A stretch of DNA of 64,000 nt. Origin: Candidatus Vogelbacteria bacterium (GTDB lineage: Bacteria > Patescibacteriota > Minisyncoccia > Phycocordibacterales > XYD1-FULL-46-19). Position 1 is the stretch's first letter, and each line of letters opens with the position of its first letter. Below are positions 17,587 through 56,627 of the stretch, piece after piece. The DNA lies in assembly GCA_021414225.1 (NCBI GenBank), contig JAIOOX010000002.1, positions 25,113 through 89,112 on the forward strand, written 5' to 3'. The notes below the pieces were generated by a model that searched no databases, was not told the origin of the DNA, and saw nothing but the letters and a program-made list of their open reading frames with translations. The position numbers and the translations under genes are program-made.

Positions 17587-17746
17587 CAAATTAAGGAGCC
17601 CGCTCTAGGCGGGCGACTATAATTTGCGCGAGTACCGAGGTACTCCGAGGTGCTTCCGCAACAAAATAAACTTTAGCTGGTGTGGCTTTTATGCAGCGAT
17701 GGGGAAGTTTGTTAATTTTTAAAATGGGTTATTATTAACAGTAATT

Positions 17747-21910: not shown

Positions 21911-22065
21911 GCCTAATTGTTTTTCAAACCACAGAAAACCACCCCAGCGGGTGGTTTTCTTCTGCTTCACGTCGGCTATTTTGCCTTACTGGAGTACCAG
22001 CCTAAAACCATGAGGCAAAAACCGGCTAGCCGACAGTTACGCAGGGGTTTGAAAAACAATTAGGC
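21911..22065. repeat. structured dispersed element, family II, copy 1
   Basis: 127-nt core (21925-22051) matches the reverse complement of 37669-37795 with 4 differences; own outer inverted repeat. Confidence 0.9.
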
Positions 22066-53260: not shown

Positions 53261-54142
53261 CTACATCTTGTATAGGTAGACAGTCACCGTGGTTTCCTTA
53301 CCATTGGTTGATTGGAACTTCAGTGTTCCGAGGTTGTTGAGATTGATGCCGTGGTTGACACCTTTCTCGGCTTGAGGGTTATCGGTGTAGGGCGCGTCCA
53401 TATATGGCCTCACCCCGTTTCCCACGACCATGACCACGTCGTGGGGATTGAACGTGACCTTGTAGTGGCTAACCACAAGAGTCACTTCCAGGTCCTTCTC
53501 GCCGGTTTTGGCCTTCATCTTGCCTTCCCCGGCGCTCGCTGTTTCGCCAATAGTCTTGGACCAGCCGGTGGCTGGTACAGAGACAGTGAACTTGGCGATG
53601 TCGTGTGCTCCCTCCGGTAACGGGCCGATCCGTTTGGGGTCGACCTTGGTTCCAGGTAGGGTGGGGAGACTCAAGTTCTGGAAAACAACCTTAGGGTCTG
53701 TTTCACCTAACCCATTAGCATTAGCTAGTGGAGTCAGAATCAACAAGAGTAACCCAGTGGTCAAGGCCGCTTTCCAGAAGCGTGACCTTCCAATCCTGAC
53801 GGCGTCTTTCTCGTAGGAGAGAAAGTACGAACCGCCAGCCATGAGAAGGACTACCATTGCGATGATGGTGTAGCCCGTGTTGGTCACGAACCACAAGAAC
53901 CAGGCTGGGAACACCCACCAGGTGGCGAAGACCACCACAGTCCAGTAGGCGACCCAGGCACCAGTTAGGAATGGATCCCACTCTGGACCTTTCGGTTTAG
54001 GGGCTGTTACGGGAGTGCCACCAGCAGTGGTTGTCCTGGGAGTTGGGCCTCCTGTAGATTTCCACATTTTTCTGACATCATCCCAGTATCGGAAGAGGGC
54101 TACTAACCCGATTCCGAGTAAGGCGATTGCTACCGAACTCAT
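53261..54142 (-). CDS. hypothetical membrane protein (GC-rich)
   Basis: 293 aa, about four TMs plus a beta-rich C-terminal domain; ATGA overlap with the upstream gene. Confidence 0.75.
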   Translation of the reverse strand: MSSVAIALLGIGLVALFRYWDDVRKMWKSTGGPTPRTTTAGGTPVTAPKPKGPEWDPFLTGAWVAYWTVVVFATWWVFPAWFLWFVTNTGYTIIAMVVLLMAGGSYFLSYEKDAVRIGRSRFWKAALTTGLLLLILTPLANANGLGETDPKVVFQNLSLPTLPGTKVDPKRIGPLPEGAHDIAKFTVSVPATGWSKTIGETASAGEGKMKAKTGEKDLEVTLVVSHYKVTFNPHDVVMVVGNGVRPYMDAPYTDNPQAEKGVNHGINLNNLGTLKFQSTNGKETTVTVYLYKM

Positions 54143-55521
54143 GAAGTAGAACCTTTCTTTTTCCTCGCCGGCTTTTGAGTGGCTGGCGGAGTCGTAGGTT
54201 GAGTCTCCGGTTTTGTTTCAGAGACTTTTTTCAGGGTTTGGGCGATTTGGGTTGCTATCCCCGAGATACCCCCATCGCCGATAATGTGCACGGCATTGGG
54301 GTTGCTCAGGCCTGCCTTGGCCGCGTCAATGACAAGGGCCTCTTGGCCCGACACTCCCGTGGCGGTTTGGATTTTTTTGAGTCCAGCCGCCTCGGCAGTC
54401 ATCATTCGCAGGTGGTTGTTAGCGAGAGCTTCCCCTGCGCGTTGTGTTTCCACCCCTTTCCCAATAGACTCAGCGATTTTTTGGATCTCTGCGTTGAGGG
54501 AGTGACTGGTCAACACCTTGAAGTTTTTGACCTGAGTGAATCTCAAGCCAATCTCGTCTTCTATCAGTTTTCGCAGGGCGTTAACCGATAGTCTTTTGAT
54601 ATCTGGTCTGGTTGTGGTGGTCACCTCTTTGTAGTCTATCCTGTTCTCTGCGAGAGCTTCCAGGACATATCGGGTGACGTAGCGGCTGATAGCATCAACA
54701 TTACGTTGTGCGCGGGCCGCCGTGCCTACCTGGCAGACTGAGCGCATCCCACTTTCGATCAGGTCTCGGACGTAATTTGTGGCGTCCTCGATCGAGTCGA
54801 AAGCGATGTCAAACCGCAAGCCTTTGGTGATTTGCATTGTGTAGGACGCCGACACCTCCGCAATGACCCGGGTTTTAAGCGGGTCCTTGTATTGATCGGC
54901 TATCTCATCCTTAACTTGTCCCTTGTCTGGTTTTACCACCACTGCCGGGACGAAGTTGTATTTTTCCTCGGTGGCGGGATCTCCCAAAGTTGGAGTAATT
55001 GTCACCGTCTGACTCAGTATATCTTCTTCGTCGGCAGGATCAGCGGATTCAAACGGCACAAAAATTGGTTCTATCCAATAATCTGGTACCATCTTCCCAC
55101 TGGCATCCTTTTTCATCCCTTTTGGCTCAGAGGGTAGTGGTTGCGGATTTCCTTGGTCGTCCTTTCCCCTCCAGAGATCTTCTGGGTTGGCAGGTACTTC
55201 TCGGGTGATGATCGCTCTCGGGTAACGATTGACGGTTGTCAGTCCCCAAAATCCAGGGACGATACCAGCATCGATTGATCCGATGCGATAGCCCAGAAAT
55301 TGAAGGACCCCCACATCTTTCGCGCCGTCCACTTTGGTGTGAATGGTGCCGTAGAGACAGTAGGCAATCCACCAGATCAGTACGACGTTTCTCCAGTTGA
55401 TACTGGTGGACGTCTCATTTTGATTTTCCACCGGCAGGCCGTTAGGCATTGCCAAGTAGATGATCACAAAGATTGCTACCATAACCACGATGGACCATCC
55501 TGAATACTGACGGGTTGTCAT
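54139..55521 (-). CDS. divergent SPFH/band-7 domain membrane protein
   Basis: Two TMs then DVGVLQFLGYRIGSIDAGIVPGFWG, SPFH-like core and Ala/Glu helix (AEAAGLKKI); AGGAG SD. Confidence 0.6.
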   Translation of the reverse strand: MTTRQYSGWSIVVMVAIFVIIYLAMPNGLPVENQNETSTSINWRNVVLIWWIAYCLYGTIHTKVDGAKDVGVLQFLGYRIGSIDAGIVPGFWGLTTVNRYPRAIITREVPANPEDLWRGKDDQGNPQPLPSEPKGMKKDASGKMVPDYWIEPIFVPFESADPADEEDILSQTVTITPTLGDPATEEKYNFVPAVVVKPDKGQVKDEIADQYKDPLKTRVIAEVSASYTMQITKGLRFDIAFDSIEDATNYVRDLIESGMRSVCQVGTAARAQRNVDAISRYVTRYVLEALAENRIDYKEVTTTTRPDIKRLSVNALRKLIEDEIGLRFTQVKNFKVLTSHSLNAEIQKIAESIGKGVETQRAGEALANNHLRMMTAEAAGLKKIQTATGVSGQEALVIDAAKAGLSNPNAVHIIGDGGISGIATQIAQTLKKVSETKPETQPTTPPATQKPARKKKGSTS

Positions 55522-55680: not shown

Positions 55681-55736
55681 GGGGTCTTAAATAACAAAAT
55701 ACCCCTGAGAATTAGGGGGATTTTACTACAAATCCA

Positions 55737-55913
55737 GGCGAGGGGAGACTCGCCCGCGACTAAATTTTTTGTCGACACAAAAAATTTGTCTGGGCACCAC
55801 CTCGGCCCCAAACTCTGCTGAGTCTGGACTGCGTGGCCTCCGGTGTTCGAGTCTCCCCTCGCCCCTACAAAATAAAAAGCCCCAAAGCTATCGCTTTGAG
55901 ACTTAATATTTTG
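55737..55913 (-). repeat. tRNA-mirror structured module A (after tRNA-Leu TAG)
   Basis: 18-nt inverted copy (55845-55862) and 15-nt direct copy (55738-55752) of the tRNA 3' end around a structured core. Confidence 0.85.
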
Positions 55914-55995
55914 TGAGCGAGGGGAGACTCGAACTCCCAACCCGTGAGGGACTAGTTCCTAAGACTAGCGCGTATACCAATTCCGCCACTCGCCC
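55914..55995 (-). tRNA. tRNA-Leu(TAG)
   Basis: ctagt-ctTAGga-actag, variable arm, TTCGAGT. Confidence 0.95.
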
Positions 55996-56005
55996 GATGT
56001 TTTGT

Positions 56006-56163
56006 TGTGAGAAATTCGGTCACAAATAATTTTGCTGTGCAAAATTTTCGCGACCCCGCCTCGGTCACAGTCTTCGACTGGCTTTGCGACCTGTGGCTTT
56101 CGAATCCCTCACAGGGACTACCAAACAATATTCATTCAATATTTTATATTGAATTCATTTGTT
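56006..56163 (-). repeat. tRNA-mirror structured module B (after tRNA-Lys CTT)
   Basis: 18-nt inverted copy (56099-56116) and degenerate direct copy (56006-56018) of the tRNA 3' end. Confidence 0.8.
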
Positions 56164-56239
56164 TGGTGCCCTGTGAGGGATTCGAACCCCCGACCATCTC
56201 CTTAAGAGGGAGTTGCTCTACCAACTGAGCTAACAGGGC
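56164..56239 (-). tRNA. tRNA-Lys(CTT), CCA encoded
   Basis: ctcc-ctCTTaa-ggag, canonical D and T arms, ends ACCA. Confidence 0.93.
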
Positions 56240-56295
56240 AATTGTAGGATTATAGTTTATTTGAGGGGGAAATTCAATTTTATAACCAAGTAAGT

Positions 56296-56433
56296 TGGGA
56301 CTCTCCTTTGACTTAAAATTTTCTACCCGAAAATTTTAGTCTAGGCACCGCCTCGCGCCGAAATGTTGCTACATTTCGACTTCGTGCGCTCCGGCGTTCG
56401 AGTCCCACCCAAAATTTAACTTTGTTAAATTTG
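56296..56433 (-). repeat. tRNA-mirror structured module C (after tRNA-Leu TAA)
   Basis: 15-nt inverted copy (56396-56410) and 8-nt direct copy (56296-56303) of the tRNA 3' end; core homologous to module A. Confidence 0.85.
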
Positions 56434-56514
56434 TGCCCGGGGTGGGACTCGAACCCACAAGGCTTGCGCCACACGATTTTAAGTCGTGCGTGTATACCAT
56501 TCCACCACCCGGGC
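56434..56514 (-). tRNA. tRNA-Leu(TAA)
   Basis: cacga-ctTAAaa-tcgtg, variable arm. Confidence 0.95.
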
Positions 56515-56555
56515 ATATTTTTTAAAATCAATTTGCTACTGCAATTTGATTTTTG

Positions 56556-56627
56556 AGGCGTGGGCGGGAATCGAACCCGCGTATAAAGCTTTTGCAGAGC
56601 TTCGCCTTACCACTTGGCCACCACGCC
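56556..56627 (-). tRNA. tRNA-Cys(GCA)
   Basis: aagct-ctGCAaa-agctt, U73 discriminator. Confidence 0.95.

Follow-up and report, generated by a model that had tools for sequence, protein, structure and literature searches.

A structurally selected, uncatalogued family of hairpin elements behind tRNA genes of Patescibacteria

Many tRNA genes of Patescibacteria are followed by a hairpin element of about 100-150 bases, and these elements form a real, structurally selected and uncatalogued family. We describe it from the window, the whole stretch of 64,000 nucleotides that was analysed, which comes from a Candidatus Vogelbacteria genome (689 kb, 41% GC, 5 contigs). In a minus-strand tRNA cluster of the window, tRNA-Leu(TAA) is followed by module C, tRNA-Lys(CTT) by module B and tRNA-Leu(TAG) by module A (Table 1). 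Searches with two covariance models found 13 copies in this genome, modules A-C included; 12 of its 43 tRNA genes have a module behind them, and the remaining copy, at C4:272707, has no tRNA nearby. Five of the copies, A and C among them, constitute one subfamily with a side arm. Rfam 15 returned no family above the gathering threshold on the modules (in the window, tRNAs and RNase P only), only sub-threshold hairpin matches over the region at E<=10, and only tRNAs at 20 further element loci. New in this analysis are the tree-aware covariation, a corrected fold, a census of DNA-type versus RNA-type loops, the 56|57 junction and the strain-level replacement of a module at this locus.

Table 1. 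Positions of the tRNA genes, the modules and their parts in the window
Feature	Position	Strand	Remark or basis
tRNA-Cys	56555-56627	-	first tRNA of cluster
tRNA-Leu(TAA), host of module C	56433-56514	-	
A/T-rich short cap hairpin	56411-56432	-	joins tRNA-Leu(TAA) 3' end to arm C; sequence, fold
Module C, whole	56296-56410	-	
Module C antisense arm	56397-56410	-	tRNA-Leu(TAA) reverse complement from T54, 14-15 nt exact
Module C core	56304-56396	-	P2 CGCC/GGCG, GGA/GA loop, P3 stems, A/T-rich hairpin 2; fold
Module C GNA mini-hairpin	56379-56385	-	
Module C hairpin 1	56359-56378	-	AGCA loop
Module C direct copy	56296-56303	-	tRNA 3' end from position 57, shortened to 8 nt
Sigma-70-like promoter match	56249-56277	-	10/12, consensus only; module C / tRNA-Lys interval
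tRNA-Lys(CTT), host of module B	56164-56239	-	
Module B antisense arm	56099-56116	-	18 nt exact
Module B core	56018-56098	-	second subtype, closing stem GGTC/GACC
Module B direct copy	56006-56017	-	tRNA-Lys 3' end, decayed
tRNA-Leu(TAG), host of module A	55913-55995	-	
Module A cap	55863-55912	-	prolongs tRNA/arm palindrome
Terminator-like hairpin in module A cap	55877-55904	-	T-rich tail
Module A, whole	55737-55862	-	
Module A antisense arm	55846-55862	-	reverse complement of tRNA-Leu(TAG) positions 54-70
Module A core	55752-55845	-	fold
Module A P2	55842-55845/55798-55801	-	
Module A internal loop	GGA 55839-55841 / GA 55802-55803	-	
Module A GNA mini-hairpin	55828-55834	-	
Module A hairpin 1	55808-55827	-	
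Module A P3	55788-55795/55752-55761	-	
Module A hairpin 2	55762-55787	-	
Module A direct copy	55737-55751	-	starts at position 57 of tRNA-Leu(TAG); 3' end, 14 nt exact

Modules A and C, whose minus-strand sequences occur in the window exactly as an initial annotation had quoted them, have a common three-way-junction fold. On the tRNA-sense strand, antisense arm and direct copy pair to form P1, after which GAA is left unpaired. P2 (CRCC/GGYG) is next, with a GGA/GA internal loop after it, and a short stem bearing a side arm on its 5' side precedes hairpin 1, the loop of which is mainly ANNA (cAGCAg 33, cAGTAg 15, tAGCAa 8). A GT linker, P3a (GSCY/RGSM), an A bulge, P3b (GNC/GNC) and hairpin 2 (loops cGACGg 43, tGACGa 22, cGGAAg 13) lie 3' of hairpin 1. 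The folding z scores against shuffles were -8.5 for A and -5.1 for C as RNA, and -9.1 and -8.5 as DNA, with none of 200 shuffles reaching the fold energy of A or C. Between the two modules, 20 of 33 pairs are identical, one is changed on one side and one goes from G-C to G.A. Both sides are altered in 11, which upholds the annotation's observation that the stems change and yet stay paired; two of these double changes, in the A/T runs of hairpin 2, may be slippage.

Several details of that first description had to be redrawn. Its first stem, read as accg/tggt, was out of register, and the actual pairing is CACC/GGTG in A and CGCC/GGCG in C, followed by the GGA/GA loop. AGAC/AGTC, taken for a fixed block, is instead a covarying stem (A-T 67, C-G 39 and G-C 10 of 127 cores), as is part of the supposedly fixed GTGCC. 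AGCA is not fixed either: it closes hairpin 1 more often than any other loop, as a 4-nt loop in 44 of 127 cores, with AGTA and others coming next. CACGMAG does correspond to a 7-nt GNA mini-hairpin with a 2-bp stem, as a trait of one subfamily instead of a family-wide block. The invariance of GGAG/GAGG was fixed by our search patterns, yet P2 variants of G029 (CGGC/GCCG, CAGC/GCTG) keep the GGA/GA loop. The core of module B, which is of the second subtype, differs from the family consensus at two sites, 56085 and 56094.

Cores of the A/C type were gathered from relatives, GTDB and metagenomes among the matches listed; 129 distinct cores were parsed, and two mis-parses were dropped to leave 127. 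The search patterns held TCGAA, CCGGAR and (C)GAGGYGGTGSCYAG constant and left the covarying columns free, so that the invariance of these three strings is partly by construction. Covariation was assessed by parsimony on trees built without the tested pair, against a rate-weighted null and not with R-scape, the copies being mosaics. Changes of both partners on the same branch were found in 6/7, 15/18, 16/19, 17/21, 25/30, 11/13, 13/22 and 25/35 cases for eight pairs (null maxima 3-15; p<=2e-4 each), and only the hp2.3 pair was not significant among the nine tested (p 0.26). The covariation that the initial annotation had expected of a larger alignment is therefore present in eight of nine pairs above a tree-aware null. 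In addition, a pair counter applied to 46 of the 127 copies gave 86.5% of cells paired versus 66.9% after shuffling, and the covariation score of these copies was 0.513 versus 0.161 shuffled and 0.08-0.16 in slid controls.

The two strands are not equivalent. In the hairpin stems, tandem GA/GA stands in place of Watson-Crick pairs 163 times and tandem TC/TC never, the element stems contain 69 G.T versus 16 A.C, and the tRNA-sense strand folds better in 122 of 124 copies with RNA parameters and in 123 of 124 with DNA parameters. Because of these three asymmetries, selection acts on one strand, beyond what palindrome repair alone would leave. The claim of selection on structure thus holds for one strand and with covariation exceeding the tree-aware null, while several of the blocks called fixed are stems or subfamily traits; the putative protein recognition of the core is plausible. 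Inverted repeats homogenise through template switching, which produces compensatory changes without selection, and the modules might on that ground be a neutral by-product of palindromes that expand around tRNA terminators and are repaired by template switching. Such repair could yield compensatory changes but would not yield conserved mismatched loops or strand asymmetry. Here the unpaired loops are conserved, tandem GA exceeds tandem TC by 163 to 0 with a one-strand asymmetry throughout, one core is common to many families of the class, and the junction is fixed at 56|57. The neutral explanation, which is largely refuted by the strand asymmetry, seems to us extremely improbable.

Each unit runs from the tRNA 3' end (X) through a cap hairpin, an antisense arm (X', ending at T54) and the core to a direct copy of X. 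The core is nearly constant across different tRNAs of one genome, and X' and the direct copy track the resident tRNA. Among 95 copies chosen independently of the arm, arm and resident tRNA agree at the variable position 59 in 95% of cases (control 30%), at position 63 in 84% (control 41%) and at position 64 in 76% (control 25%), and the exact run shared by arm and tRNA mostly ends at 62-66. The copying is not strict, because 13 of the 95 arms diverge from the resident tRNA before position 63; in about half of these the direct copy is still exact. A direct copy of at least 10 nt follows the core in 104 of 130 arm-selected copies versus 12 of 643 controls, and it is identical over positions 57-73 in 47 of 109. 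It starts exactly at tRNA position 57: base 57 is that of the resident tRNA in 66 of 68 copies, and base 56 is dictated by the core's own stem (C or A; A in at least 15 of 68). The tRNA-proximal 3' end suits the resident 5' half at 34 informative differences versus 1; therefore no foreign attP end was brought in, and the foreign-attP model is ruled out. Three copies of this genome have no arm and are joined near position 72-73, still with GAA at the 5' end of the core, and for this reason GAA probably belongs to the core. Its complement is TTC, the invariant trinucleotide of the T-loop.

The loops bear on whether the fold acts as DNA or as RNA. In 166 elements with the constant core masked, c(GNA)g mini-hairpins with a 2-bp stem were counted 79 times on the sense strand and 15 times on the antisense strand (shuffles 41.9±6.6, maximum 64), and GA-NC-GNA-GN-GA units 20 times versus 0.8 in shuffles; these counts overstate independence because the copies are related. 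Neither GNRA caps (62 versus 82.7±9.2 shuffled) nor UNCG caps (13 versus 20.6±4.7) were enriched in the 166 elements, nor were GNA loops with any closing pair (124 versus 112.5±10.1). The side-arm sequence is ACGCAGT for A, ACGAAGT for C and GCAAAGC for B, and five further copies have GCGAAGC; its outer pair covaries in the A/C subfamily (GCGAAGC 5, ACGAAGT 4, ACGCAGT 2, GCAAAGC 1, one mismatch). According to the accessible part of PMC13037366, DNA mini-hairpins of this type form with GNA loops only and have a Tm of 70-76 C, the RNA analogue r(GCGAAAGC) has a Tm of 39 C, and GNA mini-hairpins are found at ssDNA replication origins and priming sites, G4 and ssiA primase sites. On the choice between RNA and ssDNA, which the initial annotation left open, the census of loops leans towards ssDNA. 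Tandem GA and G.T content proved uninformative as a discriminator of DNA from RNA (G.T 20/400 in T-stems versus about 4% in element stems), as did the nearest-neighbour energies of the side-arm 7-mers, because the loop bonus was not applied to them.

The fold is invariably on the tRNA-sense strand, which is compatible with an RNA role too, as is read-through of module B. The modules could accordingly be cis-acting pre-tRNA trailer RNAs, in which the arm would invade the T-arm/acceptor stem, the direct copy would neutralise it and a GGA/GA-core protein would switch maturation. That the module is always tRNA-sense and close behind the tRNA would fit, and the predicted RNA fold of the tRNA plus module A pairs the arm with the tRNA 3' end. 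Module B, within which no promoter match was found, probably lies within a Lys-Leu transcript and is read through to reach tRNA-Leu(TAG), and the core holds tandem GA internal loops, which are common protein-binding motifs of RNA. However, it is DNA mini-hairpins and not RNA tetraloops that are enriched; terminator-like hairpins, such as the one upstream of arm A, often precede the arm; modules are patchy between orthologous tRNAs and between strains, and copies decay, as module B has; one copy is stranded far from any tRNA; and the modules have no Rfam match. We regard a trailer RNA as unlikely. Each of the RNA runs holds a small share of element words at most, with next to none in the source-sample run X24, and run X8, RNA by guess, has depth-2 contigs across A and B; these runs weigh neither for nor against expression.

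By models of two subtypes only, copies are present in 24 of 41 family and order relatives (0-11 each), in 17 of 41 genomes of a class-wide sample and in 1 of 37 genomes of other classes. The named records with the element, among the matches listed, are mostly Patescibacteria, including Saccharibacteria and Magasanikbacteria. The GTDB-wide pattern scan is noisy and covers the matches listed (at least 120 loci); an arm match singled out 22 among these and 32 viral loci, of which 21 looked real and one, a viral locus, did not. The tmRNA is a target too. Two complete elements were seen on contigs binned as Gammaproteobacteria and Elusimicrobiota (L108, L115), which may be mis-binned Patescibacteria DNA or true transfers.

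Units come, go and repeat in tandem. The orthologous Cys/Leu/Lys clusters of relatives G014, G008 and G027 hold different modules or none, relative G348 has an identical core behind tRNA-Ala and tRNA-Arg, G354 has a genome-specific core family behind five tRNAs, and G350 and G354 contain exact tandem units. Elements remote from a tRNA have apparently mostly been displaced by unrelated insertions. Strains were compared through single contigs of depth 2-2.5. The contig of run X2 (depth 2.5) has 0 differences to the window over 56162-56262 and 55825-56002, and where the window has module B it shows 153 other letters, a tRNA-Lys copy of 18 nt that is intact, and a remnant 26 letters long; its junction letters at module B recur in X3, from a second study. 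The X3 contig has altered core bases in module A, and the X8 contig has the consensus bases at the decayed sites of module B.

Some further features were noted at and around these loci. Contigs of runs X4 and X5 match the window up to 55724 and then diverge, which marks a strain-variable site past module A (55725-55737). A short AATCCA motif, possibly derived from serine-recombinase islands, stands after tRNA copies elsewhere in the genome and in the X2 allele of B. Five loci (L352, L331, L355, L328, L347) show further core types with the same X-cap-X'-core-X grammar in mixed chains, and also a hairpin that interrupts the antisense arm where its acceptor portion meets its T-arm portion. The same cap-hairpin type with another core occurs at 17588-17660 (+) and at L010 behind tRNA-Ser(TGA), two tRNA-Ser genes, and a hairpin-rich element with a different core lies directly past the RNase P RNA terminator at 21914-22062 (-). 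At C2:19745-19834 and C4:382068-382146, ARAGORN reports a Ser-like tRNA with anticodon ACT, directly behind a module, and a tRNA whose anticodon is unreadable. Downstream of module A, two ORFs of 460 and 293 aa adjoin it (53261-55521, minus strand) and have no Pfam match; the 460-aa product is by eye presumably SPFH/band-7-like.

A domesticated host DNA signal spread by gene conversion, either a primase/restart site or a decoy guarding tRNA integration hot spots, would agree with the position of GNA mini-hairpins at G4 and ssiA primase sites (PMC13037366, accessible part) and with the replication strand in this genome, where the C-rich strand (likely lagging, head-on) carries 9 of 12 host tRNAs versus 7 of 31 others (p 0.004). 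Strong as it is here, this bias was not reproduced in relatives (23/65 versus 13/48, p 0.42, by a 3-kb skew proxy that agrees with the 50-kb skew at 822 of 866 test positions), and we rejected it as a general feature. Moreover, 17 of 41 relatives have no detected copy, and islands still insert at module-bearing tRNAs. We give a host signal very little credence.

Our preferred reading, held with moderate confidence, is that A and C belong to a family of non-autonomous miniature mobile elements, tRNA-linked hairpins that act as folded ssDNA. The three-way-junction core is likely to be the binding end for a strand-transfer enzyme, as predicted from the fold. More tentatively, the elements could represent a new self-retargeting class of ssDNA element, in which an enzyme that recognises structure clamps cap and core, two hairpin modules, onto 12-20 bp of any tRNA or tmRNA 3' end. 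In the scheme that we propose, a helper enzyme would bind the core on ssDNA, and the 5' GAA of the core together with the antisense arm would pair with the T-loop sequence where a tRNA gene is single-stranded. Breakage and joining of the DNA would take place at 56|57 (TTC|RA), and the core would then close off the duplex downstream as a hairpin cap does. The direct and mirror copies would be made by synthesis on the target, through fill-in or fold-back, with the tRNA left intact and the element retargeted at every move. If the clamping is true, the target-matched guide would be written by each insertion itself, and an undescribed strand-transfer chemistry would provide programmable, gene-sparing insertion that is widespread in Patescibacteria.

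Candidates for the helper were sought among known enzymes. No Y1 transposase was found in this genome, although divergent HUH enzymes could escape PF01797, and no RVT_1 match was found in it despite 13 copies. Y1 (PF01797) is present in 17 of 24 element-positive versus 9 of 17 negative genomes and a reverse transcriptase in 11 of 24 versus 5 of 17, so that neither has a clear association with the element across the 41 relatives. The two tyrosine recombinase genes of this genome each lie >3 kb from the nearest covariance-model match. We found no autonomous copy (1 of 99 viral-contig pattern matches is a real element), no convincing phage carriage among 32 other viral matches, and no excised or circular form in the assembled contigs. 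One locus (L324 17309-18310, genome G340) has an HTH/LAGLIDADG-like ORF of 230 aa, flanked by tRNA-Glu and by a unit of arm, core and copy, the direct copy of which differs from the tRNA-Glu 3' end. This ORF was rejected as a mover: it has no homologue in this genome and three other matches in the loci examined, one of them weak.

A SINE-like retroelement would be read through with the tRNA, and a template-jumping reverse transcriptase provided in trans would write it back to the tRNA 3' end, which would give the mirror and direct copies. Such an element would account for the zig-zag order X-cap-X'-core-X, the junction slips of 1-2 nt (a duplicated GA) and the small inserted modules, all of which suggest polymerase jumps, and the sense-strand polarity is consistent with it. 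Against this, RVT_1 is missing from a genome with 13 copies and also from 13 of 24 positive genomes, and the caps are of the DNA type. We therefore find a retroelement distinctly improbable, and return to the folded ssDNA element. If that reading is true, a host or helper enzyme carries out target-templated insertion into essential RNA genes, harmlessly, which would be relevant to mobile-DNA biology and possibly to genome-editing tools. A stripped-down Patescibacteria genome spends space on folds behind 12 of 43 tRNAs, and strains swap them. A caution for these genomes is that covarying sequences put forward as 'ncRNA candidates' may be structured DNA.

A preprint reportedly deals with GNA-loop intergenic elements behind haloarchaeal tRNAs. 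No published description of the element was found in the literature searched, from which subscription journals were mostly absent, so that a record in print is possible. The available text of 10.64898/2026.10.21.760802 has no match, and its supplements could list the motif as an unnamed cluster; likewise, no match to the element was found in the accessible part of PMC7002104 or in PMC3623002.

Among known systems, REP/REPIN sequences with RAYT (Y1 HUH) transposases were compared from the accessible part of PMC3116915, and they resemble the element in being miniature, non-autonomous, hairpin-forming, intergenic, multi-copy, clustered and divided into genome-specific subfamilies. A REPIN, as described there, is an inverted doublet of a constant REP beside a RAYT gene. 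Unlike it, the element has closing arms copied from the target tRNA and, as its constant part, an asymmetric three-way junction; two inverted copies of a constant REP palindrome are absent, the inverted arms being target-specific and the core asymmetric. The RAYT/Y1 link expected of a REPIN is absent as well, 7 of 24 positive genomes having no PF01797 and 9 of 17 negative genomes having it.

With IS200/IS605 elements (IS608) the element would share one active strand and structure-specific hairpin recognition, as far as the accessible part of PMC3201880 describes them. In that source, a guide that lies 5' to the foot of the hairpin sets the IS608 cleavage site by pairing with it, and the GAA before the core, complementary to the T-loop TTC, might play such a guide role here. 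IS608 inserts 3' of a tetranucleotide, gains no DNA and encodes TnpA (PMC3201880, same part). Unlike IS608, the element duplicates up to about 17-25 nt of its target, adds a mirror copy and has no linked tnpA. The strand-specific ssDNA hairpin ends of IS200/IS605 would have their counterpart in the one-strand fold and DNA-type caps observed here; insertion without target duplication has none, a direct copy of at least 10 nt being present in 104 of 130 copies.

Integrative elements and islands at tRNA 3' ends carry a direct repeat of the 3' part of the tRNA from the T-loop, leave the tRNA intact and accrete in tandem. The element is similar in that its direct repeat restores the gene and starts at position 57. 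Unlike islands, it has neither integrase gene nor cargo (no integrase lies within or linked to the units, which are about 100-200 nt and hold no ORF), and its structured core comes with an antisense arm, which islands lack. Theta ribozymes are likewise small structured elements beside tRNA 3' ends and are described, in the accessible part of PMC10879173, as HDV-like self-cleaving RNAs with a cut site adjoining the tRNA. The modules, by contrast, start 20-80 nt away and have nested three-way junctions and tRNA-derived arms; the covariation fits this nested junction and not an HDV-like double pseudoknot, and Rfam gave no HDV-type match. Nor is there a linked RT gene of the retron type, with no RVT_1 here and 11/24 versus 5/17 in relatives.

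By a defining test of each, the element falls outside REPINs, IS200/IS605, integrase islands, theta ribozymes, RT-linked elements and all Rfam families. In its working it would seem to come closest to a REPIN or MITE with the island habit of using tRNA 3' ends, and none of the compared mobile families copies its target both ways around a constant core.
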